Position numbers and translations under genes: made by a program. The notes under the pieces were generated by a model. That model ran no database searches and was not told the DNA's origin. It saw only the letters and a program-made list of their open reading frames with translations. A stretch of 64,000 bases of DNA from a virus. Lineage: Duplodnaviria > Caudoviricetes. The DNA lies in IMG/VR virus record IMGVR_UViG_3300038345_000094, positions 1 to 64,000 of that record; one strand, given 5' to 3'. This document shows positions 47,288 through 64,000 of this stretch, piece by piece (position 1 is the stretch's first letter; every line of letters starts with the position of its first letter).

Positions 47288-50200
47288 TGGGTTCACTGGT
47301 AGACAGGGTAATTGACGCACTTGAAGAGCGAAGGGAAAGATTAGAAAGCGGTCAAATAAACTGCATACCGTCGCCATTCAAGAGATTTTCAAACAACTTC
47401 GTCGGGATAGAACAAGGTAAATACTATCTCGTATCTGCAGCAACTAAGGCAAAAGTAAAGGTGTTATTAATTTCTTGTTAAATGCGTGTTGTAATTAAAT
47501 AATATTTTGTATATTTGCAAAAATTATTTAATTATGCAGAGTATAAAACAAAATCTTAAAAGAAGCGGTGTATATGTAATACTAAACAAGTTGAACAATC
47601 ACCGCTATGTTGGAAGCAGTAAAAATATCTATAGTAGATTATTGAAGCATCGATCATTACTTAGAACGGGTAAACACGAAAATTCTCATTTGCAAAACGC
47701 ATGGGATAAATACACAGAATCAAATTTCGATTATGCGGTTTTGGAGTATTGTGAAATAAATAAATTGTATGAAAGAGAACAATTTTTTATTGATACATTA
47801 TCTCCAGAATACAATATCGCTCCACGTGCTGATTCTGCTGGATTTATTTCAGAAAACATGAGAAAAAATATGTCTATATCAAGAATTACTGGCATAAAAA
47901 ACGGAAGTATTCCCAAGACGCACAATAAACCAATTTTTGTATACAATAAAAACGGGGAATTTGTCGGATATTGGGACTCAATTCGTAGTGCTTGTTTAGC
48001 TCTTAGAATAGACTATTCGTGTGTGCAAAGAGTAATAAAAGGCGAATATACACAAACTTGCGGGTATAAATTCTTTTCCGAAAAACAAGACATCGTTGCT
48101 CCATTCAAAAAAGCAAAAGGCGAGCATGCAGTGCCAAGAAAAGTATTTGTATTCACTAGTGATGATGAAACGCTGAAATTTTACGGAATGGAAGAAGCCG
48201 CGAAATATTTCAATGTTACAATAAAGACACTTAGACAATATACTACTGGAAAACACAAATTTAAGAGAAAATATTATATAACATCGTATCTGCCGTGTGA
48301 TTAAGTAATTAATCATATTATAACTCCTGGATATCGTCGAAGGCTAAACGGAAACGCATGCTAACTTGACGAGGCGAAGAGCTAATGACTCAGCCCAAGA
48401 GACTAAATACAGGAGCATCTTACTGGGATGAAGACATAGTCCAGACTACAAACAGTATGATGGGTTTAATTCCCGTACTAGGCTAATGACCCGGTGAACG
48501 AGAAATCGTTAATGAAGATACTGGTGGTGAAAACCATAGTGGTACGAGGTAAGTCGCAGATTATGAACTACTTATTCCTGTATAATAGTATTTTCTATGC
48601 TTATAAACATCAGGATAAAGTTAGGCTAAGAATTCTGTATTACCCGCTTGAAGAGACGCAAGAGGCAATCACAACTCGCTTTATGTGTTACTTGCTTTAT
48701 GTGTTGTCTCACGGTGTTATCCGCAGATCTCCTACGGAATTGCGCTCTACAAAAGAGGACGATCCGATTGAACCGGAAGTGCTCGAATTGTTAAAGAGCG
48801 ATACGTATCAATCGATACTGAATTTCTATGAAGATCATGTTACATTCCTGCCGGACCGAAACCCTACGGGTATTATGTATTCGGCCAAGAAGTACGCGGA
48901 TAACAACGGGACGGAACACAAGAAGAAAGTCACCATAACGGATAGACATGGCGTAGTAGTAGACGAAAGAGAAGTCTTCGACTATTATGAACCAGCTGAT
49001 TCCAACGAGTATGTGATGATCATTGTTGACCATATAAGTCTTATAGACACCGAACAGGGTAAAACCTTACGAGAGTGTATGAATATGCTTTCAGAGTATA
49101 TGATGAGACTGAGAAATCGGTATAATTATATCCCTGTTATCATACAGCAGCAATCTCAGGAGACTCAGAGTCTTGAGGCTTTCAAGTTCAACAAGATCAG
49201 GCCAAGCGTTGCAGGTTTAGCAGACAGTAAATATCTTGCGAAGGATTAATAACAATGTTTGTAATTGTGTTTGTTTATTTAAAAAGTTTTCTTATATTTG
49301 CACCATAATTTTATAAGTTATGGTACATTCAAAAATAAAAGAAAATTTAGAACTGTTCGAAAGGCTTTTCAACGACGGATTAAGCGATTATAAGATCGCA
49401 AAAATATTAGGTTTAAACCACGCTACGATATTTCAGTTTCGCAAAAAGCATGGATACATTAGAGACTCTCTTCGCACTGCAAAAGCAAGAGAATTAACTA
49501 ATGTGGAAATGGAAGTAATAATTGGATCTTTACTTGGCGATGGAAATATGCGACGAACCGGGAAGAATGCTTCGTTCTGTATTGGACATGGTCCTAAACA
49601 AAAGGACTACTGCTTCTACAAAACGAAACTTCTTGAAGATTTAGGCGCAAAATTTTCATATTCTAAAAGAAAAGTTCCAGATAAGCGTAATGGGAAATTG
49701 TATGACACCTATTGGTGTAGAGTTGGTGCAAATCCAAACTTTAATCCAATCTATGAAGAGTTCTATAAGGACGGGAAAAAACATATTCCAATGGAATTAG
49801 TAAACAATTATTTCTCTCGTCTTTCATTGGCCATATTGTATATGGATGATGGAAATAAAACAGAGAATGGCTATACCATAGCGACTATGTGCTTTGATAG
49901 AGATGAGATAAATGAATTTAGAGCATTCTTGCTGTTAAAATTCAATTTAGAAACTTCTGTATTTGGTGATGGTCGTTTATATATTATGGCTAAAAGTGCT
50001 GATTTGTTTACCGATTTAATAAAAGAGTATGTTATAGACAGTATGCAATACAAACTTCATAGCAGTCCTTGTAAAACTGGGTTAAAAAGGGGAACTCCTG
50101 AAAAGGACAATCCTTTGCCAAGCTCTGATTTAAATGGTTAGAGAAGGCCAAACGACTAGGTGATGAAACTCAAATGAGAATATAATTCACCCACGAAATC

Positions 50201-51270: not shown

Positions 51271-52197
51271 ATGGCATTTGGCACAAGTTCAGCAAAACCA
51301 GTCTTCACGCGGTACACAGGAATCGGTATCGCTAAGGTCGTTGGCATCAATCCGACGATGAAAGAAATCAATGACGCTTTTGGTCGTGAAGTTTATACAA
51401 ACGAGCCCACTTATACACAAGAAGTGGAATATGATGGAGTGAAGTCGAAGATGAGCAGGGTTTCCTTCCTGCTTAAATTCGAAGCCTCTGATAATATGGG
51501 ATATTCTGATTTGCATTTTCTTACTATCTCCATTACCAATAAGGTTATCAAGAGTTCTGATACGACGAACCCCAAGGTTCAAGTGATTGATGAATTCGGC
51601 CGTACGGCATGGGTGACAGAAGATGAATTCAAAGAGAAGAAGATTCCAGTCTACTCCAATGGGCCAGCTAAGCTTACAAACAACTATCACGCTGTCTTGC
51701 GTGGCGAAGAGCGTCTTGTGAAGTTCATCTCTGCTGTCAGGGCTACTCCTAGCATCGATGTATGGGATCCAGACGGCAAGTGTTGGGTTACTAACAAACG
51801 AGAAGATGCAGAAAACTGCAAGAAGGAGATTCCTAAGGAAGACATGAAGAAGATCCTGAATGGCGATTTCTCTCCTGTCCGCTCTTATCTTGAGGATGTC
51901 AAGGACAACAAGGTTAAAGTTGTTCTCGGCGTTCAGACAAGCAATGACGGTCGTCAGTATAACACCATTTATGACGGTGATTTCATGACTGTTTTCCAGA
52001 AGAAAACGACTAACATAGAGAAATCTGTGCGTGAAGCGCAGGCTAATGGGAGATATCCGAATACTGTCTTTACTTTTGGTCCGCTCGTAGAAGCAACATC
52101 TGTGAAGCCGGATGATTTATCAAAACCTGTTGATCCGGCTATCTCCTCACCTAGCGCATCTTCTTTCAATCCTCTTGACGACCTCCCATTTGACTAA
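51271..52197 (+). CDS. Putative single-stranded DNA-binding protein
   Basis: Acidic aromatic tail DDLPFD; follows ATPase. Confidence 0.55.
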   Translation: MAFGTSSAKPVFTRYTGIGIAKVVGINPTMKEINDAFGREVYTNEPTYTQEVEYDGVKSKMSRVSFLLKFEASDNMGYSDLHFLTISITNKVIKSSDTTNPKVQVIDEFGRTAWVTEDEFKEKKIPVYSNGPAKLTNNYHAVLRGEERLVKFISAVRATPSIDVWDPDGKCWVTNKREDAENCKKEIPKEDMKKILNGDFSPVRSYLEDVKDNKVKVVLGVQTSNDGRQYNTIYDGDFMTVFQKKTTNIEKSVREAQANGRYPNTVFTFGPLVEATSVKPDDLSKPVDPAISSPSASSFNPLDDLPFD

Positions 52198-53156
52198 TGT
52201 TTGGCAAGGAGAAGAAAAAAACTCAAGATGATATAACTAACGAGATGCTGTTAGCATACTATTTCGATGTCTATCAAGTACCATGCGTGATAAAATCACC
52301 ATTCCGTACTGACAGGAAGCCATCCTTTAGTTTCTATAAGACACAATCAGGGAATATACGATTCAATGATTTTGCTTCTGGAGAAAAAGGAACGCTTCTT
52401 GAGGCGATAGCACGATTGAAAGAAGTTGATGTTGACAATATCTGGCAAGTCATACGAGACGATTTTTCATCTCCAGACACCAAGCATTATTTTGAAGACG
52501 AACGTATGACAACCATCGTCAGAAACGATCGGAGAGAATTCCGTATCAAAGTAAGACGATGGGAGTCTTACGATCTCGATTATTGGGCTTCTTTTGGCGT
52601 TAATTTGGACTTTCTTACACGAATGGAAGTGTACCCTATCTCGCATGTTTTCATTGAAAAGAACGGCATTTTATGGCCGTTTCCGTGCGATAAATATGCG
52701 TACGCTTATGTGGAAAGAAAAGAAGGATTCGTGTCATATAAGATATATCAGCCCTTTAATACGAGTGGAAGAAAATGGCAGACTAATATGGACAAAAGTA
52801 CTATCGGCTTATGGACTAAACTCCCAGAAGCAGGAGATAAAGTATGCATCTGTTCATCATATAAGGACGCTATGAGTCTGTGGTGCAACACTGGGATACC
52901 AGCCATCGCCATTCAAGCCGAAGGGTTTGACATGAGTGAACATGCACAGAATGATCTTCGAAAGAGATTCAAAGAGGTTATCATCATCTTGGATAACGAT
53001 AGACCAGGAATTGAATACTCGCAGCGACTGCAAAAACAGACTGGCTTCAAGAACGTTATCATACCTCCATTCGATGGGGGTAAAGACATCTCTGACTTAT
53101 ACAAAGCAATTGGAGACAGAGATACATTCAAGAAGAAAATACTTGAAATACTATGA
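52197..53156 (+). CDS. dnaG: DNA primase (TOPRIM)
   Basis: SPFRTDRKPSF, F.DF..G..G; ICSSYKD; ILDNDRPG; KDISD. Confidence 0.85.
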   Translation: MFGKEKKKTQDDITNEMLLAYYFDVYQVPCVIKSPFRTDRKPSFSFYKTQSGNIRFNDFASGEKGTLLEAIARLKEVDVDNIWQVIRDDFSSPDTKHYFEDERMTTIVRNDRREFRIKVRRWESYDLDYWASFGVNLDFLTRMEVYPISHVFIEKNGILWPFPCDKYAYAYVERKEGFVSYKIYQPFNTSGRKWQTNMDKSTIGLWTKLPEAGDKVCICSSYKDAMSLWCNTGIPAIAIQAEGFDMSEHAQNDLRKRFKEVIIILDNDRPGIEYSQRLQKQTGFKNVIIPPFDGGKDISDLYKAIGDRDTFKKKILEIL

Positions 53157-53380
53157 AATTTGGCGTTAGATTCCAAAAAATGTTCGCTATGTTTCCCGAT
53201 ATCGATCGTACAAAGATCGCACATAATCGGGTTACTAAGCTTACTCGGCCGGAGATGTATGAAATCCTTCGCGGGATGAAGGCATCCGGCATAAAGACAC
53301 CAGCTCAGCCTACTCGTACTGGCTCTGAGGAGATGCGGTCTTTCATCTTCACGATAATCGATAAGAACGTCTCCAAGTAA
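53153..53380 (+). CDS. Hypothetical protein
   Basis: 75-aa ORF overlapping both neighbours. Confidence 0.5.
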   Translation: MKFGVRFQKMFAMFPDIDRTKIAHNRVTKLTRPEMYEILRGMKASGIKTPAQPTRTGSEEMRSFIFTIIDKNVSK

Positions 53381-54222
53381 TGAAAGCGAAAAGAGTGTCT
53401 TTCCACCTGTCCTTAAGATCGCGGAACACATCAAACCGTGAATTGAAGGACATTGTCTGTCCTGTCAAGACTATCTATCGTATGGGCAGTACGACTCCTA
53501 CTGACGAAATTACGCATCGTAGGACATTCATAGAGATTAACACCGCTGATGCGTGTCGTATCTCTTCGAATAAGATTCTGATGAAGCGTAGATTCTGCCA
53601 TGGGAAAGTCCGTACTCCGCAATTCTATATGATGGTGAACAACAGTCTCGACGGGCTACGCGCAAGGACGAAACACCGGCTGGGAAAGTGGCCTGCTGGC
53701 ATCATTGCCAAAAGGTATAACTCCAGTAAGGGAAACGGGCTTGCCCTTATCAAGAGTATGGATGATTTCGAAAACTTCGTTACGGGCAAGTCTACCAATG
53801 AGTTGTCCAAGTGGATTTTCGAAAGATACTCTACCTACACGCGTGAATATCGTCTTCACGTGACAAATGATGGTTGCTTCTACGCGTGTCGTAAGATGTT
53901 GCGCAATGAAGCAGATGTCAGATGGCACCGTCATGACGAGAATTCCGTGTGGATCACCGAAGAAAACGATCTTTTCGATAAACCAAGCAATTGGGATGAC
54001 ATAGTTAAAGACTGTGTCTCGGCTCTTAAGTCCGTAGGGCTTGATATCGCCGCATTTGACATCAAGGTGCAGCGTTCCAACGGGGATTCGCCTAAATGGC
54101 TTATCCTCGAGTGCAACAGTGCGCCGGGCTTGGGTACAATCGGATTGGAAAAATATAAAGAAGAAATCCCAAAACTCATAAATGTCAAATTAAATGAACA
54201 AAGATTACCTCAAAATCGTTGA
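53380..54222 (+). CDS. ATP-grasp ligase (RimK-like)
   Basis: SSNK..MK, IIAK...SKGNG, REYRLHV, GLDIAAFDI, ILECNSAPG. Confidence 0.85.
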   Translation: MKAKRVSFHLSLRSRNTSNRELKDIVCPVKTIYRMGSTTPTDEITHRRTFIEINTADACRISSNKILMKRRFCHGKVRTPQFYMMVNNSLDGLRARTKHRLGKWPAGIIAKRYNSSKGNGLALIKSMDDFENFVTGKSTNELSKWIFERYSTYTREYRLHVTNDGCFYACRKMLRNEADVRWHRHDENSVWITEENDLFDKPSNWDDIVKDCVSALKSVGLDIAAFDIKVQRSNGDSPKWLILECNSAPGLGTIGLEKYKEEIPKLINVKLNEQRLPQNR

Positions 54223-55204
54223 TGCCGTAGGCTCTTCTAGTCACGGCGTCGATTCCACGTTCTCTTGTTCTGGCGACAGTAACCTGCCGATGCTGACTCG
54301 AATTTGCTTCGGCTCTTTCACTAAGTCGTTTTGCAGCAAGCGGAAAGTCGACATCACGGTAAGAATGTTCAAGAACATTTGGAAACAAGGCTGTTATAAT
54401 TGCAGTAAGGGTGTCACTCCCTTTACTTGCGAAGAGATAGTCCAGTATCTGAATGATCTTCGGAAGATCTTTCCGTTCGAATTCGAAGTCGAAGAAAAGA
54501 CCATTCCTCACAAGAGGTACGAAAACATGCTTTTCTCCGGCCGCAATGAAGACAAGGTTGATGTCATCGATGTGACTTATCATATCGAAGGACCTCATAT
54601 TGCCTTCATGTTCATCCTGTCGCTTCAGCGATTCCTCTATGCCTTTGGCGATTCGTTCTATCTCGCTCTCGCTTTCGAGATCAAGAATGGCGGCTATGGT
54701 TTCGATAAGATGAATCTCTTCAACATTCTGAATTGCGTCATCTCTACGACTCACTGCCGTTACATGGGGAATGATATGTATCATCTCAACCCAGAGAACT
54801 TCGTATATCTCCTTAACTCGAAAGACTTCAGGGAGATGCTTATCGCTCGTGAAGAACTGGCGCAGCAGAAGTATGAAGACGGTTGTGCTGATCTTCATCT
54901 GAGTATGCCGTACGTTAATGACTCTCGTCTTAAGCGTATGCGTGTGGACAATCCGCACCGCTTCACGTGCTTTAAAGAAGGAAACGATGATGCCAAGAAG
55001 GTAATACTTGACACTATTATCTTCAATCTCGGAATCCTCCGCGAGTACAACGGCTTCGGAGAGAAGGCGAAGATCAAGAGAGACGCCCTTGCGGCCAAGA
55101 CAAAAGAGATATTCCGCGATCAAATCAATTGCTACGGCGAAAGAGAAGACAGCGATATCATCTCCGTCAAGACACACATCGATGAAACCAGACTAGCCGA
55201 ATGA
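54194..55204 (+). CDS. Hypothetical protein in amidoligase cluster
   Basis: 336-aa Cys-rich ORF overlapping both neighbours. Confidence 0.6.
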   Translation: MNKDYLKIVDAVGSSSHGVDSTFSCSGDSNLPMLTRICFGSFTKSFCSKRKVDITVRMFKNIWKQGCYNCSKGVTPFTCEEIVQYLNDLRKIFPFEFEVEEKTIPHKRYENMLFSGRNEDKVDVIDVTYHIEGPHIAFMFILSLQRFLYAFGDSFYLALAFEIKNGGYGFDKMNLFNILNCVISTTHCRYMGNDMYHLNPENFVYLLNSKDFREMLIAREELAQQKYEDGCADLHLSMPYVNDSRLKRMRVDNPHRFTCFKEGNDDAKKVILDTIIFNLGILREYNGFGEKAKIKRDALAAKTKEIFRDQINCYGEREDSDIISVKTHIDETRLAE

Positions 55205-55860
55205 AACGAAAAGTTTATGTCATTGGCCCCTATATGGGGTACGCGTCGTCCATAACCGACAAGCAACTTGTTGACAAGATCGAAGATGCAGATGTTGTCG
55301 TCCTTACTGGCGGCTCTGATGTCGATCCTTCGACTTATGGCAAGCCGTCCGAACCCGAGACTTACGGCAATAAGCAAAGAGATATCTTTGAGATTGCAGA
55401 GTATCGGAAGGTAAGAAAGGACCAAGTCGTTGTCGGTATCTGCCGTGGCGCCCAACTGCTTACTGCCCTTAATGGCGGTATTCTCGTACAGCATGTCACT
55501 GGACATTGCAACGGTATGCATAAGATGATCAGTACTGCAGGAGAAGTCTTTAGTATCACATCTCTGCATCACCAGATGTGCTATCCTTTCGACATGCCGA
55601 AGAGCGATTACGAGGTACTGTTCACTTCGTATCCCGCTCGAAGCTCTGTTTACAAGGGCTCTGGAGTTGACACAGAGGTACTCGAAGCTCACGGTGAGCC
55701 AGAGATTATCCTCTATCACAAGGACACAGAGCCCATCGCACTGGCCGTTCAGGGTCATCCTGAGATGATGGATATCGACAGTAAGACTGTCCGTATGTTC
55801 AACGATCTCATCGATGAATGCCTTGAAATGGCGAAGAAAAGACAAGAAATGGATGTTTAA
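55201..55860 (+). CDS. Class I glutamine amidotransferase / peptidase C26
   Basis: LTGGSDVDP, GICRGAQ, SLHHQ, VQGHPE (C-H-E triad). Confidence 0.9.
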   Translation: MKRKVYVIGPYMGYASSITDKQLVDKIEDADVVVLTGGSDVDPSTYGKPSEPETYGNKQRDIFEIAEYRKVRKDQVVVGICRGAQLLTALNGGILVQHVTGHCNGMHKMISTAGEVFSITSLHHQMCYPFDMPKSDYEVLFTSYPARSSVYKGSGVDTEVLEAHGEPEIILYHKDTEPIALAVQGHPEMMDIDSKTVRMFNDLIDECLEMAKKRQEMDV

Positions 55861-55876
55861 CCTATAAACTCTTGTT

Positions 55877-56728
55877 ATGATCTTACCTGCAATGCATTTC
55901 ACGATCGGAGCTGATCCTGAGATGTTTATCATCAACACGAAAACTGGAGAAGTTGTCTCCGCGATCGGTCTTATCCCGGGCGAAAAAGGACACCCTTGGG
56001 TAGATCCGAACTGGTTTGAAGGATTCGGTCTTGAAATAGACAATATCCTTGCGGAGTACAACATCCCTCCTGTGTCGAGGAAAGAGGACTTCATTAGCGC
56101 AATCAACTTCATGAAGGATTACATCGATGCTTATGTCAAGAAGACCAATCCTGACTATGGCATTCTTTGTGCTTCTTCGAAGATGGTACCTGAAGACCAA
56201 CTCGACAATCCTATCGCCAAACTGTTCGGTTGTTGCCCAGACTTCAACTGCTACACTGGCGCTCCTAATCCACGTCCGAAGGGCGAGATGACCAATCTTC
56301 GCTCTGCGGGATTTCATGTGCATTATGGCTACGAGAACCCTGACATCGACACCTCCGTCGAGATGGTGAAGTATTTCGATGTCTTCCTTGGGCTTATGTC
56401 GTTATTCTTTGATACCGACCGGAAGCGTCGCTCCCTGTATGGCAAGGCTGGCTGCTATCGACTCACCTCTTATGGTGTGGAGTATCGCACCCTGTCTTCC
56501 AAGATGGGCGAAACCGACGAGACGATTGGCCTCATCTATGACGGCGTTCTCGCTGCCACTCAGGCATATGAAATCGACTTGCATATCCATTGCCAGCCGG
56601 ACGTCATCACAGCTATCAACAACAGCGATATGCTGATGGCTCGTGCTATCCTGTCAACCATTCGGAAATCAACCGATAAAAACACTTTCATCTATTCTTA
56701 CTTGTCGAACGTCCTTAAAATCAAGTAA
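55877..56728 (+). CDS. phiEco32-like COOH-NH2 ligase type 2
   Basis: IGADPE.F, DNILAEYN, FGCCPDFN, RSAGFHVH.G, RRSLYGKAG.YR...YGVEYRTLS. Confidence 0.88.
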   Translation: MILPAMHFTIGADPEMFIINTKTGEVVSAIGLIPGEKGHPWVDPNWFEGFGLEIDNILAEYNIPPVSRKEDFISAINFMKDYIDAYVKKTNPDYGILCASSKMVPEDQLDNPIAKLFGCCPDFNCYTGAPNPRPKGEMTNLRSAGFHVHYGYENPDIDTSVEMVKYFDVFLGLMSLFFDTDRKRRSLYGKAGCYRLTSYGVEYRTLSSKMGETDETIGLIYDGVLAATQAYEIDLHIHCQPDVITAINNSDMLMARAILSTIRKSTDKNTFIYSYLSNVLKIK

Positions 56729-56730
56729 CA

Positions 56731-58269
56731 ATGTGTGGATTATTCGGCATATTAAGTAAAGAGAAAGTTACGATTGACAAGCGGGCGATTGCTGTTCTTG
56801 GTCTAGCCAATGACAGCAGAGGCGGTGATGCATGTGGACTGTTTATCGATGGTCAAGTCGAATATGGCACAGAAAAGGAACTTGTTAACTTCTTCAACTT
56901 CTTCCAACAGAGTGAGTTGTTCAAGGTCTCCCAGAAAGCCAATGTTGTTCTTGGCCATTGTAGAAAAGCGTCTGTCGGTGGCAAAGCTGCAGATAAGGCG
57001 CAACCGGTAGTTATCAAGGAAGGAGAGGAAATCAAGTTCGTCCTGCTTCATAACGGGACAATCAAAAACTATTCCGATCTGGCGAAGAAGTATATCCCTG
57101 ATGTCGATACAACCGGGATGTCCGACTCGCAAATCATGGCTCGCATCTTCTATGATGTTGGCTATGACTGCCTTGGTGAGTATAATGGCGGAGCCGTTTT
57201 CGTTGCTGCTGATTATCGTGGCGAAAAGCCAGTAATCAGACTGTGGCGAGGATGGGCCAAAGAATATAGTTATAGCAAGGAGATGACAGCAGAACGCCCT
57301 CTCTACTTGACTATGTTCAACAACAGACTCGTATTCTCTTCTATCAGTGAAGTCTTACAGGCTTTGTACCCCTTTAGCGAGGTTAAGACTGTCAGGCCGA
57401 ACTCACTTTGTGTCTTTAGCGACGGTAAGTTCTACGTCGAACGAGAGTTTGACAGGTCTTCCTGCCTACAGACCCCGACTTCATACTCGTCTACCAGTAA
57501 TGCTTACACTGATGATAGGCAATATTATAACGGGTATGGCTCGCATCAAACGGGCGGCGGGTACGTCTACGACTCGCGTAAGGCCAAAGCAAAAGAAGAA
57601 GAAACGAAAAAGACGACATTGACTCCCGGTATGGGCTTCTCTGCTAGCCGACTTCTGTACGATGACAATGTTGATCTCACGGGATACCAAGATTCCGTCT
57701 ATTGCGACGAGAATTTCTTGGTTTACTATGTTAACGCCCTCAATCGCGGTGTTAGCAGATCTGAGTTCATCCCCTCAACGTGCAAGTTGCTTCATGGCAT
57801 CTATAACTTGAACTCCATTGGTTTCATCAAGAACGACAAGCCGAACGACGATAAGTGCTTCAATTTCGCATTCTATAACGGAATACTGTTGAAAAGTGTC
57901 GACTGCTTTAAGTTCTTGCAGAAACTTGCGAAGATGTGGTGCGTGAATTTCGCTGATATGGGAAATCTCGCTCCGTATCTCGTGGAGGCTCTCGCTATGT
58001 ATCCGGTGCCAAAAGACCAAGGCGGCGTTAGTAACATTTTCCATATGATAGATCCAGATAACGATTTCTCCGAGGTGGTCGTAGATGGCGATGCTACTTA
58101 TCCCATCGCGCTCACTCAGAGGACTGTCAAGTTTGACCATGGGATTATCTCCAATGTCTCGAAATCGACGGTCTTCACGGACACCTTCGACTATGCGAAG
58201 AAAATCGCCGGGTCTTACATCATCGACAACAAATCAATCCTCGCATTTTTAGATACGGCATATGATTGA
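56731..58269 (+). CDS. Class II (Ntn) glutamine amidotransferase
   Basis: MCGLFG, RGGDACG, LGHCRKAS, HNGTI.N, SDS. Confidence 0.9.
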   Translation: MCGLFGILSKEKVTIDKRAIAVLGLANDSRGGDACGLFIDGQVEYGTEKELVNFFNFFQQSELFKVSQKANVVLGHCRKASVGGKAADKAQPVVIKEGEEIKFVLLHNGTIKNYSDLAKKYIPDVDTTGMSDSQIMARIFYDVGYDCLGEYNGGAVFVAADYRGEKPVIRLWRGWAKEYSYSKEMTAERPLYLTMFNNRLVFSSISEVLQALYPFSEVKTVRPNSLCVFSDGKFYVEREFDRSSCLQTPTSYSSTSNAYTDDRQYYNGYGSHQTGGGYVYDSRKAKAKEEETKKTTLTPGMGFSASRLLYDDNVDLTGYQDSVYCDENFLVYYVNALNRGVSRSEFIPSTCKLLHGIYNLNSIGFIKNDKPNDDKCFNFAFYNGILLKSVDCFKFLQKLAKMWCVNFADMGNLAPYLVEALAMYPVPKDQGGVSNIFHMIDPDNDFSEVVVDGDATYPIALTQRTVKFDHGIISNVSKSTVFTDTFDYAKKIAGSYIIDNKSILAFLDTAYD

Positions 58270-59545
58270 ATTCATCAATAGATCCAATCAACCCTATCCG
58301 GAGGGGAAGACAGATACGATCGTAGCGATCAAAGATAATGAACTTCATTTCAAGCTGAAGAACACCAACAGCAAGGCAAGGATGCTCTCCGTTGGAGATA
58401 ATCTCTTCCCGCTGGATGATGATCTCGTGCTGTCTGGAGTCGACCTTATGTTCTCGTCCAACTATGGACATTATGTAATGGTATCCAAGGGCGACATCCC
58501 TACGGATCACATTATCTTAGGTCGTGGTCGCTATCCGTATTCCTTCTCTCGGGAGTACGAAGCTGTGCGCCATTTCGATATCTTCAAGGATACTGCAGAA
58601 CTGGTAGATCCCAAGAAGCTCCGCCTCGTATCGCCGACTCATACTTTCGGCATCGAGTTCGAAACATCTGCTGGCTATCTTCCGCAAGAGCTGTGTTTCA
58701 AAACGGGTCTCATTCCGTTAAGAGACGGTTCGATTGGTGCCTGTGAGTACTCCACAATCGTCTTGAAGGGTGCTCAAGGTCTCGACCTGCTTCGTAAGCA
58801 GGCCGACACGCTGAAGCAGTACACTGTCTTTGACAAGGAGTGTGCGCTTCATATGCACCTCGGTGGATTTCCACTCTCCTCAAAGGCTTTGTTCATCCTT
58901 TATGCCATGTGCTTCTACCTCGAGAGAAACATGTATGAGAACATGATTCCTCGGCTGTCGTTCAGAACGGCAGACTACAAGGCAAATGGCAAGGATTACT
59001 GCCTTAAACTGCCAGAGTTCCATTCCTTCTTAGACCTGTATAAGTTCTTCGTTGGAAGAGACTATGGCGGTAGTCTCAGCCAGCCGCATCCCGATGATCC
59101 TACTCGGGAGCGTAAATGGCAGATTCACAACAGGTATTATGGGTTAAACCTGATCAACATGTTGTGCTATAAGTCTCCCAAGACCGTAGAATTTCGGTTT
59201 TTACGGCCGACATATAACTGGAAGAAGCTGTTCTTCTGGGTATATTACTTCGATATGCTCCTCTGTATTGCCGAGAAGCTGCAACAGAAGTTAATCAACA
59301 AGGAGTTTACCTATATCTTCGATGCCGTTTATAAGTTCATGGCGAAAATGCCGCCAACTGAGCTGATTAACGACTATACGGATAATGAATCCCTGCGGGC
59401 CTTCATGAAGGGCATGATGAAAGCCAATGCGGCTGTTGTCAACAGTCAGGGTCAAGTGAACGACTTCTGTGGCAGACGTATCGACATTGAAGATGTCATT
59501 ATCAACAGGTGGTTCTACGACTCCGGGATCGACTTGGAGAAGTAA
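58262..59545 (+). CDS. Putative amidoligase (GS/GCS-fold, Amidoligase_2-like)
   Basis: TFGIEFET, RDGSI...EY, CALHMH, RYYGLN, TVEFR. Confidence 0.85.
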   Translation: MIEFINRSNQPYPEGKTDTIVAIKDNELHFKLKNTNSKARMLSVGDNLFPLDDDLVLSGVDLMFSSNYGHYVMVSKGDIPTDHIILGRGRYPYSFSREYEAVRHFDIFKDTAELVDPKKLRLVSPTHTFGIEFETSAGYLPQELCFKTGLIPLRDGSIGACEYSTIVLKGAQGLDLLRKQADTLKQYTVFDKECALHMHLGGFPLSSKALFILYAMCFYLERNMYENMIPRLSFRTADYKANGKDYCLKLPEFHSFLDLYKFFVGRDYGGSLSQPHPDDPTRERKWQIHNRYYGLNLINMLCYKSPKTVEFRFLRPTYNWKKLFFWVYYFDMLLCIAEKLQQKLINKEFTYIFDAVYKFMAKMPPTELINDYTDNESLRAFMKGMMKANAAVVNSQGQVNDFCGRRIDIEDVIINRWFYDSGIDLEK

Positions 59546-59550
59546 CCTGA

Positions 59551-60012
59551 ATGTCTAGCAATAAAAAGGTAAAGAATGCCAGCCCAACAAAAGCGGATGG
59601 GATAGAATTCAAATCCCGGTTAGAAGCAAACACTTATAAGCGGCTGAAAGACGAAGGTTTTTCACCGCAATATGAGCGATTGTATTTTGACCTGATAGAC
59701 GCATTCTATCCCCGTAGCGCTTGTTACGATAAGCACTACGACCGCTCTTTGAAGGACAAAGTGTTTGGTCTTAACACCGTTAAAGTCCAAGCCATTACCT
59801 ACACGCCAGATTTTACCTTTATGTACAAAGATAGACTCATAGTCATCGAGTGCAAAGGTAAACCGAATGACGTGTTTCCACTCAAGAAAAAGCTCTTTCG
59901 TAGGTGGATGGATAAATACACCCATCTTACGGGAGTGAGTATCTTATACTTCGAAATTCATTCTCTGGATGAATTAGAAGAGAGCATCGAAGTAATTCGA
60001 TCGCTAAACTGA
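59551..60012 (+). CDS. DUF1064-like PD-(D/E)XK endonuclease
   Basis: DGIEFKSRLEA, YTPDF...IECKG. Confidence 0.8.
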   Translation: MSSNKKVKNASPTKADGIEFKSRLEANTYKRLKDEGFSPQYERLYFDLIDAFYPRSACYDKHYDRSLKDKVFGLNTVKVQAITYTPDFTFMYKDRLIVIECKGKPNDVFPLKKKLFRRWMDKYTHLTGVSILYFEIHSLDELEESIEVIRSLN

Positions 60013-60019
60013 CCTTGAA

Positions 60020-60373
60020 ATGGCAAAGAGCATAACACAGAGGATCGAATATCTGTTAGGGTCACTACCCGACACTGACATTCCCATTGCCAGAAAGTAT
60101 TTCGCTAATCATCAATATGAAGAGATACGTGAACTCACGGTCTCTGCCATAACGAAGATTAAGAAGGCAAGAGGATCTAACGACATAAGCAAAATCCAGA
60201 AGTATGCGTACATCACTGATAAGCGCATGCTTGATATGATGAAGCTTAACATAGAGTTAGACAACTACCTCGCCCTCTTGGAAGAGATTCTCGGACAAGA
60301 CGACGACGTAGAAGAACCTGACTTTATGGATATCGATCCTGACATGTTATCTGAGGAAGACATTTATGGCTAG
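60020..60373 (+). CDS. Hypothetical protein
   Basis: 117 aa, acidic tail. Confidence 0.55.
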   Translation: MAKSITQRIEYLLGSLPDTDIPIARKYFANHQYEEIRELTVSAITKIKKARGSNDISKIQKYAYITDKRMLDMMKLNIELDNYLALLEEILGQDDDVEEPDFMDIDPDMLSEEDIYG

Positions 60374-61448
60374 TCGAAAATCAATCCTTGACATCGCCTG
60401 GAATGTGCCTGAAGAGACATATCGAAGCGACCCGTCGTATCACTATTCTTTGCTGTCAGATTTTCGAAATAAGGGCATTCATTTCGCGAATGAACTACTG
60501 AATCCACCCGAGGAGAGAAAGCCCTCCAAATCGCTTATTTTCGGGTCTCTCGTTGATGCTATGCTTACCGACGAGAGTAAACTGGAGCAGTTCGAGAATA
60601 TCGGCAGAGAAGAAGACGTAGTAAAACTCACGGCCACAGAGTTAAAGGTGGCAACATATATACTTGAGAACCAAGATTTCTTCCCGCTTCAATTATTGAA
60701 GACAGACTCTGGTATATTCTATCAATGTTTCGTCGATTGTGATGCATATACGACAAGTAAGCCTCAGACAATTCTTGACAAACACGGAGACAGAATACTT
60801 GATTATCTCGAGAAGTCTCTTGTGATAACTGGAGATAAATACCAAGTCACCGAGGAAGACTGGGTTGATGCGCTTGAATGCAAGGCAGCTATACTCGAAT
60901 CATCAATGGGGAAGTACTTCAATGCTCTCCCGTTTGATGGTGATATTGAACGAGTGAATCAGCTCAAGTTGAAATGGAGAGATCCGAAGACCGGAATCAC
61001 TTATCGAGTGATGCTTGATAATGTCTATGTAGATCATGACAATAAGATAATCCAGCCTAATGATGTGAAGACGTCCTCTTCTTACGAGGACGAGTTTTAC
61101 AATAGTTTCATCAAATGGAATTATGACATTCAGGCTAGATTATATTGGCGTGTCCTGTATAACATACTCAAGGAAGACCCGTATTTCAAGGACTTCACGA
61201 TTCTACCATTCCAGTTCTTGGTTGTTTCAAGATATTCCAAAACGCCTATCATATGGCGTTACGACGATTGTGTAAAACCCGGAGAGCTTGTCTACCACAA
61301 GCGCAACGGAAGTGTGATCGTCCTCGAAGATCCTTTTGATATTGGATTCAGACTGCAGAAGGCAGCAGACAGAGCCTGTGCCATACAGGAAGGCATCTCT
61401 ACCGTAAGCAGCAATCTGATTGAGTATTGGATCGAAAATGGCAGCTAA
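60366..61448 (+). CDS. PD-(D/E)XK exonuclease (RecE/exoVIII-like)
   Basis: FGSLVD, MLD...D.KT, YDIQARLY. Confidence 0.75.
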   Translation: MASRKSILDIAWNVPEETYRSDPSYHYSLLSDFRNKGIHFANELLNPPEERKPSKSLIFGSLVDAMLTDESKLEQFENIGREEDVVKLTATELKVATYILENQDFFPLQLLKTDSGIFYQCFVDCDAYTTSKPQTILDKHGDRILDYLEKSLVITGDKYQVTEEDWVDALECKAAILESSMGKYFNALPFDGDIERVNQLKLKWRDPKTGITYRVMLDNVYVDHDNKIIQPNDVKTSSSYEDEFYNSFIKWNYDIQARLYWRVLYNILKEDPYFKDFTILPFQFLVVSRYSKTPIIWRYDDCVKPGELVYHKRNGSVIVLEDPFDIGFRLQKAADRACAIQEGISTVSSNLIEYWIENGS

Positions 61449-64000
61449 TGATTAAATACGTAACAAAACGAGACGGTAAAGTTCAGGAATTCACGAGTGA
61501 TAAAATCCTCAATGCAATCAAGAAGGCTTTCAAGGAAGTCTTCGGTGATGAAGATGTATCTGAGAAGATAAGTACCGCATTTGCGTCGGTAATGGCTAGG
61601 ATTGAAAGCCTGCCAGACAAGACGCATATCGAGAAAATCCAAGATATCATTGAGGAGGAGCTCATACATACTGGACAACTCAATGTTGCGAGGAAGTTCA
61701 TAGCTTACCGCAATCAGCGTAATCTCGCCAGAAAAGCAGACACTATCAAGATTTTCGATAGTATCATTCAGGCACAAGCAAACGATATCACTAGAGAGAA
61801 TGCGAATATGAACGCAGATACTCCCGCTGGTATGATGATGAAGTTTGCTTCTGAGACAACTAAGACTTATGTCGATGAAGTACTCCTTTCACCGGATGTG
61901 GCTGATGCTGTGAAGAACAATATCATTCATATTCACGACAAGGATTACTATCCTACGAAGTCACTTACTTGTCTTCAGCATCCGCTTGATAGATTACTTA
62001 AGAACGGATTTGTTTGTGGGCATGGCGAGGCTAGACCAGCGAAACGAATAGAGACAGCTACTGCGCTTACAGAAGTGTCTCTGCAGGCCATACAAAATGA
62101 GATGCATAGATTACTGTGCATGCTATCAGTAATGATAGAAAAATATAAACGATGTGAACCGGTTCATCAGCCGGGTGTGACGAAAGTTGCTAACGGGAGA
62201 AAAGCCCAATATCCCGTGCTAAGCTTCACTTTTTGTTGATTTTTCTTGCATATGTCAAATATTATTCTTATATTTGTATTATGAAGAAAATTAATGAATT
62301 ATTCAGTCTTGAATGGGCGTCAGATTGCTATTTTATTGACGATGATCTTAATATCGTTAATATAAAGACAGGTAATCTAAAATCGAAAACCATAGGGAAA
62401 AGAGGCTATTACTATGTTACCCTTAATAGAAGAGATGATAATAAACAAATTAAAGTATATTATCATAAAATCGTAGCATTAGCCTTTATTCACAATGGAC
62501 CATATGATGTGATTAATCACATAGATGGAAATAAATTAAACGACTCTGTTTCGAATTTAGAATTTTGTTCTCAGAAGCACAATGTACAACATGCTTTTAA
62601 GACAAAACTTGTGAATAGAAATGAGAAAAAGTTTTTAATTCGATTTTTAGATGGCGGTGAATGTGTAATGACAGCAAAAGACGCAAATAACATTATTGGT
62701 ATCCCAAGGGTTACGTTATATGACTTATATTATAAGCATTCTCGTTCTCCTAAGTGGTCTATAGCTGAAGTAATAAGTGAAGAAAGTGTAGAGACTATCG
62801 AAAGCAAATAACCGCATAAGGAGTTATTTGCAAGTAGAGTAGGACGGAGATGATGCCGTCCGAAGCGCATCGGGCCCTACGCGTGAAGGCGAGGGCTGTG
62901 AGATAGTCCATAAGAACCTATGGGTGGGCAATCTATTCCTGCAATTGATTTCTATCTTGCGCCGTTTGTGAAGATGGCATTCAAAGAAGAACTCAAGAAA
63001 ATAGCGGAACTGTATCCCCATATACCTAAAGATGCATTCGTCAAGGAACTTGATGTTGATGTTAAGGAATACATAAAGAAAGAAGTCGATCCTAAGAGTT
63101 CTACACACGATATGATTATCCAGTATGCGATTAATCGTACCGTTGATAGGGTTCATCAGGCGATTGAAAGCTTTATCCATAATGCCAATATCATTCATTC
63201 TCGTGGCGGAAATCAGGTTGTATTCTCGTCGATTAACTTCGGTACAGATACATCACCTGAAGGTCGTTGCATCATCAGAGAGATTCTCAACTGTACTTAT
63301 GAAGGAGTTGGTTTCGGTTCTACCGCAATCTTCCCGATTAGCATTCTGAAAATCAAAGATGGTGTCAATGTCAAGCCGGGTGATCCTAACTACGATCTGT
63401 TCAAGTTTGCCTGCAGGGTGACAGCAAAGCGCTTCTTCCCTAACTTCCTGAATCTCGATGCTTCTTATAACGTCGATGATGCGTGGAAACCAGATGATCC
63501 GATGAGATATATGCATGAAGTCGCAACCATGGGTTGTAGAACTCGCGTGTATGGCAATCTCTTCGGCCCTAAGACATCTGTCGGTAGAGGTAATCTTAGC
63601 TTCACTACTGTTAATATTGTTCGTCTTGCGCTGGAGTGTATGGATATCAAGGATAAAGAAGAGCGCATCAACGCATTCTTTCGCAAGTTCGATCTTGCCC
63701 TTGATATCGCGGCAAAACAGCTTAATGAGAGGTATAACTTCCAAGCCACTGGTGTTGCAAAACAATTCCCTATGCTTATGAGCGGAATGTGGCTTGGTAG
63801 TGAGAATCTCAAACCTGACGATCCAGTCGGTCCTGTGTTGAATCAAGGCACTCTGTCGATGGGATTCATTGGGCTGGCTGAATGCCTGATTGCACTCATT
63901 GGTAAGCACCACGGCGAAAGCGAAGAGGCTCAACAGCTTGGATTGAGTATTATCTCCCACATGAGAGAGAAAGTGGATGGCTATTCACAGAAGTATCAGC
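61448..64000 (+). CDS. nrdD: Anaerobic (class III) ribonucleotide reductase, exons 61448-62107 and 62923->64000 (partial)
   Basis: ATP-cone VTKRDG; HIHDKD; spliced QNEMH|GGQSIP; SRGGNQ..FSSINFG; MGCRT; GRGNLSFTTVN. Confidence 0.92.
62245..62278 (+). promoter_or_regulatory. Intron-internal Bacteroidota-type promoter
   Basis: CTTG...TATATTTGTA directly before the HEG ATG. Confidence 0.55.
62281..62811 (+). CDS. HNH homing endonuclease
   Basis: YYHKIVA..F...INHIDGNKLNDSVSNLEF...N..HA. Confidence 0.9.
   Translation: MKKINELFSLEWASDCYFIDDDLNIVNIKTGNLKSKTIGKRGYYYVTLNRRDDNKQIKVYYHKIVALAFIHNGPYDVINHIDGNKLNDSVSNLEFCSQKHNVQHAFKTKLVNRNEKKFLIRFLDGGECVMTAKDANNIIGIPRVTLYDLYYKHSRSPKWSIAEVISEESVETIESK

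Follow-up and report, generated by a model that had tools for sequence, protein, structure and literature searches.

What might a crAss-like phage make with three ligases that join carboxylates to amines, two glutaminase-type enzymes and a protein family confined to its own kin? The question is raised by a locus at 53153-59545 of the window, a stretch of 64,000 nucleotides that opens a complete virus record of 102,257 bp bounded by direct terminal repeats (IMGVR_UViG_3300038345_000094, positions 1-64,000). The closest database relative of this genome is the uncultured crAss-like phage cr108_1 (Steigviridae, Asinivirinae). Our answer, to which we assign a probability of roughly 55%, is that the locus is the crAss-like version of the phiEco32-type amidoligase cassette, and that it builds, amidates and trims a glutamate-linked amide compound. 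The phiEco32 cassette (gp77-gp88; Pfam PF14395 and PF12224) was reportedly predicted by Iyer, Abhiman, Burroughs and Aravind in 2009 and is thus already known as a computational flag. An earlier, sequence-only reading of this DNA had held that no product has been demonstrated for such clusters; our literature searches agree, having returned computational mentions only.

Five enzymes and their active sites

The cassette consists of seven open reading frames (ORFs) within an uninterrupted + strand gene train that spans 50.6-62.8 kb. Consecutive ORFs overlap by 1-29 nucleotides or are separated by gaps of 2-16 nucleotides (Table 1). Promoter and terminator scans of 50-63 kb gave results at chance level, and megablast and tblastn of the cassette region against phage records gave no match. 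Five of the ORFs are named by Pfam, PHROGs and NCBIfam: a RimK-like ATP-grasp ligase, a C26 enzyme, a COOH-NH2 ligase type 2, an Ntn amidotransferase and an Amidoligase_2-type ligase. PHROGs backs the five with RimK-like, GATase (1e-28), COOH.NH2 ligase and amidoligase families (ligase values in Table 1). The C26 protein scores 61 bits against Peptidase_C26, where the cut-off is 20.5, and its nearest NCBIfam models, gamma-glutamyl-CDP-amidate hydrolase and gamma-glutamyl-GABA hydrolase, both lie far under their cut-offs. The ATP-grasp protein scores under the cut-offs of Pfam ATPgrasp_ST and R2K_2; by BLASTP it matches genes of cr108_1 (5e-75) and Cellulophaga phage phi14:2 (5e-59), as well as phiEco32 gp80 (2e-8). 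The final ligase carries an N-terminal extension of ~130 amino acids (aa). We accept its Amidoligase_2 identity despite the sub-threshold Pfam score because it is clearly orthologous to annotated amidoligases, with BLASTP values of 1e-64 to a cr108_1 gene and 4e-35 to phi14:2 g041, which is annotated 'amidoligase enzyme'.

The catalytic residues can be read straight from the translations (Cys2 of the Ntn enzyme; Cys81, His186 and Glu188 of the C26 enzyme; E244-x-N246 of the ATP-grasp ligase) and are invariant among 8-13 divergent orthologues. The C26 triad is unchanged in all 8 sequences aligned. Across 13 orthologues of the ATP-grasp protein, K65, E156, R158, H160, K172, D227, E244 and N246 are invariant, and the 22 invariant columns of the COOH-NH2 ligase (13 sequences) include D13, E15, D55, E60, H147, H149, R184, R195, E202 and R204. 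The amidoligase retains E132, E134, D155, E162, H197, H199, E310 and R312 in 12 sequences. The sequence-only reading had described a translationally coupled run placed between a primase and nucleases, had named its enzymes, had judged their motifs apparently intact and had likened it to clusters of phiEco32-like phages. Layout and position are as it described, the gene identities hold by Pfam and PHROGs assignment and by orthology, and the likeness to phiEco32-like phages is borne out by BLASTP orthology of the core enzymes.

The Ntn enzyme is built from more than its catalytic domain. In the AlphaFold2 model, residues 1-245 match PurF, GlmS, AsnB and EgtC at Z scores of 20-23 (PurF 22.9, EgtC 19.9), and this N-terminal domain is a standard class-II glutaminase. 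It is followed by a disordered linker of 65 residues (252-316; window 57484-57678; predicted local distance difference test (pLDDT) score <50) rich in Ser, Thr, Tyr, Gly and Lys, and then by a beta-rich C-terminal domain of ~195 residues (317-512; pLDDT mostly 80-90). Pfam gave no family match for the C-terminal domain, and an Atlas search no usable one. Orthologues of the enzyme vary between 377 and 846 aa in length. The combination of an ATP-grasp ligase and an Ntn enzyme is shared with the synthesis of N-acetylglutaminylglutamine amide (NAGGN; Ngg ATP-grasp plus AsnO), but neither Pfam nor the AlphaFold2 model places an asparagine-synthetase-type domain behind the Ntn domain of the window protein.

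Table 1. The seven ORFs of the cassette and the genes that flank it, in window coordinates
Feature	Position	Strand	Match or remark
Primase	52197-53156	+	Directly upstream of cassette (Pfam, PHROGs)
75-aa basic protein	53153-53380	+	No match in Pfam, PHROGs, NCBIfam
RimK-like ATP-grasp carboxylate-amine ligase, 280 aa	53380-54222	+	phrog_2599 7e-29
336-aa protein, family confined to crAss-like clusters	54194-55204	+	No match in Pfam, PHROGs, NCBIfam
Class-I glutamine amidotransferase / Peptidase C26 (gamma-glutamyl hydrolase type), 219 aa	55201-55860	+	Peptidase_C26 1.8e-16; GATase 6e-6
COOH-NH2 ligase type 2 (glutamine-synthetase-like amidoligase), 283 aa	55877-56728	+	PF14395 43.6 bits (cut-off 25), 2.7e-11; phrog_3815 1e-59
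Ntn (class-II) glutamine amidotransferase, 512 aa	56731-58269	+	GATase_6 6.2e-14; Cys2 present
Amidoligase_2-type (glutamine-synthetase-like) ligase, 427 aa	58262-59545	+	PF12224 19.4 bits, under 22-bit cut-off; phrog_2443 1e-7
DUF1064 resolvase + PD-(D/E)XK exonuclease	59551-61448	+	Directly downstream of cassette (Pfam, PHROGs)

Linkage and adjacency across phages

We compared 47 loci: eleven annotated phage records, two metagenome loci and 34 contigs found by scanning genome assemblies, most of the latter 40-55 kb long, binned into metagenome-assembled genomes (MAGs) and probably of phage origin. All of their ORFs were scored with profiles built from the cassette families. The annotated records were taken from top to bottom of the ranking of 314 phage records, out of 50,697, that tblastn of the COOH-NH2 ligase matches; they include cr108_1, phi14:2, Leptolyngbya phage Lbo-JY46, phiEco32, a PaP3-type Bruynoghevirus, Aeromonas phage LAh_9, Vibrio phages IME271 and 1.208.B, phage T4S1 and Pseudomonas phage PA11. 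The ATP-grasp ligase, COOH-NH2 ligase, Ntn enzyme and amidoligase lie on one strand in all eleven; the four are orthologous by BLASTP in 8 records of unrelated lineages and annotated in 3 more. Across the whole set, both glutamine-synthetase (GS)-fold ligases and the Ntn enzyme share a strand in 35 of the 47 loci, 30 of which also hold the ATP-grasp gene, and the loci lacking a full core are mostly short or truncated contigs. The genes therefore travel together rather than assorting independently across phages, the pattern that the sequence-only reading had set against its own proposal.

The phiEco32-type cassette also occurs in PaP3/LUZ24-type, PA11-type, Lahexavirus and Zobellviridae phages. 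With the 314 matching records and many metagenome contigs taken together its hosts come from at least five phyla, and the window copy places it in gut crAss-like phages too. Cassette contigs of 40-86 kb were also found in MAGs named Saccharibacteria, Patescibacteria, Ktedonobacterales, Acetivibrio and others (L019, L021, L023, L025 and L029 among them); these are probably phage genomes binned with their hosts, which would extend the range of hosts further. Scans of IMG/VR with the COOH-NH2 ligase, and with the alignment of the 336-aa family, returned nothing, or one 769-base fragment.

The window locus shares with that of phiEco32 the four core enzymes, encoded on one strand close to a primase, but the gene order differs. 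It holds a C26 enzyme and the 336-aa family in place of the gamma-glutamyl cyclotransferase (GGCT), the gp85-like protein, gp87 and gp88 of phiEco32, none of which has a detectable counterpart in the window. Closer at hand, phi14:2 (g037-g041) and cr108_1 likewise carry the cassette between the primase and the resolvase/exonuclease, with the genes in matching order and per-gene identities of 25-45%. They too differ from the window: in phi14:2 a GGCT is present but neither C26 nor the 336 family, whereas cr108_1 encodes two paralogues of the 336 family, and its cassette is followed by a UDG gene.

Gene order within the cassettes suggests two ligase-glutaminase pairs, a pattern that is new here. 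The amidoligase and Ntn genes are direct neighbours in 26 of 35 loci, and the C26 and COOH-NH2 ligase genes in 16 of 27. The gp85-like protein, where present, always stands between the two GS-fold ligases (14/14); profile comparison (hhalign) of its family with the C26 proteins and with the amidoligases, whose N-terminal extension was the region of interest, was not significant.

A second new pattern concerns the enzymes that cleave gamma-glutamyl bonds. Among these 35 cassettes, 22 have C26 only, 6 have GGCT only and 5 have both, while the two with neither are cut contigs; every intact cassette thus holds at least one of the two. Since 22 of the 35 have C26 only, GGCT is not universal in phiEco32-type cassettes. 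The swap takes place even inside families, as between phi14:2 and cr108_1 (Steigviridae) and between PA11 and 1.208.B (Zobellviridae). Whole-genome searches found no GGACT-family gene in the window genome, cr108_1, IME271 or PA11, and no Peptidase_C26 gene in phi14:2, phiEco32, the PaP3-type phage, LAh_9 or 1.208.B. Indeed, PF06094 (AIG2/GGACT) has no match at E<=1 anywhere in the 102-kb window genome, which has C26 instead. Of 10 cultured or annotated genomes, 9 kept to strict mutual exclusion, a pattern weakened in the wider set by the 5 loci with both. Three MAG contigs (L032, L040, L044) show a reduced variant with COOH-NH2 ligase, C26, GGCT, usually a second C26 and a ~250-aa family; no amidoligase, Ntn or ATP-grasp gene was found there at E 1e-5.

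The genes might also serve catabolism or salvage, with the enzymes degrading or rewiring host gamma-glutamyl compounds (glutathione-like thiols, gamma-glutamyl polyamines) and making no dedicated product. GGCT is a degradative enzyme, PuuA and PuuD form a GS-like ligase and C26 pair in catabolism, and the closest named models of the window C26 are gamma-glutamyl-amide hydrolases. For such a role, however, three ATP-consuming ligases with strictly conserved active sites would be excessive, and the host range includes bacteria without glutathione. We regard this explanation as very improbable.

The neighbourhood of the cassette raises a different explanation. In all eleven annotated phages it lies within a few kb of a primase or primase/helicase gene, and in the window a Sak4-like ATPase and an unknown protein lie upstream along with the primase. 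The enzymes could build an amino-acid-derived adduct on a phage DNA base or nucleotide precursor, and Lee et al. (PMC8989533) describe some viral contigs in which genes for thymidine hypermodification stand next to amidoligase and amidotransferase genes. The complete 102-kb genome, however, has no match to PF00303 (ThyA-type) or PF01702 (TGT/DpdA), and PF12851 (Tet_JBP) stays under threshold, its sole hit being a chance one of 10 bits antisense to another ORF. What the genome does contain is an ordinary ThyX, a dUTPase and an anaerobic ribonucleotide reductase. Nor is a 5-hydroxymethyldeoxyuridine kinase or a pyrophosphorylase annotated in the 11 loci, and hypermodification is accordingly a decidedly poor prospect. 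A ribose-phosphate pyrophosphokinase gene adjoins the cassette in LAh_9 (L008) and Lbo-JY46 (L006), joined in LAh_9 by a nicotinamide phosphoribosyltransferase gene; these neighbours are probably an unrelated module connected with nicotinamide adenine dinucleotide.

The 336-aa family and the 75-aa ORF

Two ORFs remain, of 336 and 75 aa, and the sequence-only reading had cast the 336-aa protein as a possible carrier or substrate. It had also proposed structure prediction, which we ran for the 336-aa protein; the AlphaFold2 model (pLDDT 85.7; predicted template-modelling score 0.87) has no match in the PDB by Foldseek. In BFVD it matches crAss-like proteins only (E 1e-7 to 1e-9), among them two cr108_1 ORFs, both unannotated. 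The protein has 32 close homologues, several on ~100-kb contigs, and a profile search of 1.8 billion representatives yielded 57 relatives. Its tblastn against phage records gave no match, and an Atlas search gave leads only at scores of 0.78-0.80, DUF932 among them. Among the compared loci the family is found only in the crAss-like group, namely in the window, in cr108_1 as two paralogues and in four further loci (L015-L018). This restriction, together with the link to C26 described below, is new here.

The family is functionally tied to C26, since the two genes adjoin in 6 of 6 loci and since the two are joined in fusion proteins. Three proteins of ~480 aa (P0051, P0053 and P0069) have an N-terminal domain that matches the cassette C26 profile (E 4e-11 to 7e-8), followed by a 336-like domain; the C26-like domain has lost its Cys, His and Glu triad. 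Within the family, Cys38, Phe39, Arg146 and Tyr149 are the sole essentially invariant residues among 79 members (C38 and R146 in 79/79, Y149 in 75/79), and the model places Cys38 between a strand and a short helix. Such a pattern looks like an active or binding site rather than a carrier. Given the invariant residues and the fusion to a degenerate C26 domain, the 336-aa protein looks like a folded, lineage-specific enzyme or specificity subunit, and the proposal of a carrier or substrate is not supported. In its C-terminal disordered tail (55153-55204), a few residues before the end, the protein bears a short acidic motif, K-[FV]-D-E-[ST]-x-L, which is kept in most close homologues and missing from distant ones; it could be a docking or modification site.

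In other lineages the same slot holds proteins that are unrelated and likewise unnamed: in phiEco32 these are gp87 and gp88, and in other contigs a family found at 11 loci. Comparison of the 336 family by hhalign with the gp87 and gp88 families, and with the 11-locus family, was not significant. A conserved catalytic core accompanied by fast-evolving, lineage-specific subunits suggests that the latter supply target specificity.

The 75-aa ORF is a real gene, since L015, L016 and cr108_1 have an ORF of 71-80 aa in the same slot, which in the two closer relatives is 50-55% identical. In four aligned homologues the C-termini differ, are not acidic and never end in Glu. This is unlike S6 and LysW, the acceptors of RimK/LysX-type ATP-grasp enzymes, and a role as carrier or substrate is not supported for the 75-aa protein either. 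Whether it belongs to the cassette is uncertain: it overlaps the primase stop codon by 4 nucleotides and so may instead be at home among the replication genes. In phi14:2 its slot holds the GGCT.

These observations bear on the possibility that the cassette tags proteins. On this view a protein of the host or the phage would receive glutamate or short peptide tags from the ligases, much as RimK modifies S6 or PafA modifies lysines; C26 or GGCT would take the tag off again, and the lineage-specific proteins would recognise the target. The best PHROG of the ATP-grasp enzyme is indeed RimK-like, phage ATP-grasp ligases of the R2K clade have been argued to modify proteins (PMC4431377), and variable lineage-specific subunits would suit host-specific targets. 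Moreover, the best rows of a wide structural search (VIA) with the 336-aa model are, weakly, PafA (Z 4.2; root-mean-square deviation 5.3, 201 residues aligned) and Dop (Z 3.9; 5.9, 178 aligned). Both Z scores, however, lie under the tool's stated noise level, and hhalign comparisons of the 336 family with both GS-fold ligase families were not significant (E 0.12-0.34). The resemblance to RimK is likewise incomplete, as the Pfam ATP-grasp scores are sub-threshold and no S6-like acceptor was found; the cluster has no conserved acceptor with an acidic C-terminus. The two amidotransferases, too, are hard to fit in a simple tagging system. On balance we consider protein tagging unlikely.

A bolder and still less probable idea, for which we would claim only an outside chance, is that the 336 family is a new enzyme, complexed with C26, that moves the glutamyl or peptide product of the cassette onto a host-specific macromolecule. 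If so, gut crAss-like phages would carry a pupylation-like tagging or envelope-editing system whose targets are recognised via fast-evolving, lineage-specific subunits.

Product, acceptor and genomic context

How might a glutamate-linked amide compound be made by these enzymes? In the scheme that we favour, the cassette would be expressed along with the replication genes. Its three ATP-dependent carboxylate-amine ligases, one RimK-like ATP-grasp and two GS-fold, would each convert a carboxylate to its acyl phosphate and couple it to an amine. Each GS-fold ligase would have one of the two glutaminase-type enzymes as its partner: C26 for the COOH-NH2 ligase and Ntn for the Amidoligase_2 protein. 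These partners may deliver ammonia from glutamine, converting carboxylate to carboxamide as MurT/GatD do; alternatively, they may cleave gamma-glutamyl amides as do PuuD and EgtC. Together with C26, the 336-aa protein would serve in specificity or transfer as a subunit peculiar to the lineage. Overall, the cassette would yield a short amidated glutamate- or glutamine-derived amide or peptide moiety, made from universal metabolites and placed on a non-DNA acceptor. The sequences show directly which genes are present, that their active sites are intact, that they stay linked, which of them adjoin and that 336-C26 fusions exist; the order of reactions, the pairing, the kind of product and its acceptor are inferred. 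The glutamate/amine-based pathway of the sequence-only reading fits the evidence as a proposal.

The scheme has precedents in logic. MurT/GatD, PuuA/PuuD and EgtA/EgtC each combine an ATP-dependent, carboxylate-activating ligase with a partner of class-I or Ntn glutaminase fold, and BtrJ/BtrG likewise combine a ligase with a partner that removes a gamma-glutamyl group. All four are analogies rather than cases of orthology; the first three resemble the window enzymes in fold or superfamily only, and the pairing in the window is drawn from adjacency. In detail, the Ntn domain resembles EgtC, and the models nearest to C26 are of PuuD-type hydrolases.

Several points weigh against this scheme. No solved structure is detectable by sequence for the ATP-grasp ligase, the COOH-NH2 ligase or the amidoligase, and literature searches returned no product, substrate or phenotype for any cassette member. 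Since six cassettes have GGCT only, the COOH-NH2 ligase cannot strictly need a C26 partner, and gene adjacency is no more than suggestive as a sign that enzymes pair. In the Ntn enzyme, the part that would be expected to define the acceptor is the C-terminal domain, for which no family match came to light. Finally, the consistent proximity to primase or primase/helicase genes would also be compatible with a role linked to replication or DNA.

Among acceptors, a free small molecule or polyamine conjugate is our tentative choice. A peptidoglycan precursor or other envelope component is a slightly less favoured candidate, and a protein equally so; a nucleic acid is improbable, as is any acceptor of another kind.

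The envelope deserves separate mention, since it offers a complete explanation of its own. Here the cassette would amidate or extend carboxylates left free on peptidoglycan precursors in the cytoplasm, or on some other envelope component, changing the cell surface so that superinfection is blocked or lysis altered. Chemistry of this kind is well known: the ligase-glutaminase pair MurT/GatD amidates stem-peptide carboxylates, as do AsnB-type Ntn amidotransferases, and an ATP-grasp ligase adds D-Asp. The whole host range observed also has peptidoglycan in common. PMC10580990 quotes Iyer et al. 2009 for cell-wall modification and superinfection exclusion. However, the cassette proteins showed no peptidoglycan-related domain, no Mur-ligase, transpeptidase or flippase gene is annotated in the 11 phage loci, and the cassette sits among replication genes. 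Literature searches found no experimental report of envelope modification, which we therefore hold to be unlikely as a full account, at about the level of protein tagging.

For the amide-forming pathway that we favour, experiments are narrowed by the two ligase-glutaminase pairs, by the rule that an intact cassette has C26 or GGCT and by the 336-C26 fusion. Cultured relatives in which a product might be sought are the crAss-like Cellulophaga phage phi14:2, phiEco32 and the PaP3/LUZ24-type phages. If the product were identified, the cassette genes of hundreds of phages, therapy candidates among them, would gain a function.

Some features elsewhere in the genome are recorded here. A 653-aa ORF at the DNA polymerase position (genome 66011-67972) has no Pfam match at E 0.001, and a 159-aa P-loop kinase (AAA_33) is encoded at genome 68852-69331. 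The replication region contains a GIY-YIG/NUMOD homing endonuclease ORF (47507-48304) and a LAGLIDADG homing endonuclease ORF (49320-50141). The anaerobic ribonucleotide reductase gene nrdD is split (window 61427-64000; genome 62920-64497) into a first ORF with the ATP-cone and NRDD positions 1-103, a second encoding an HNH endonuclease and a third with NRDD positions 104-562, an arrangement that looks like an intron or similar insertion with a homing endonuclease.

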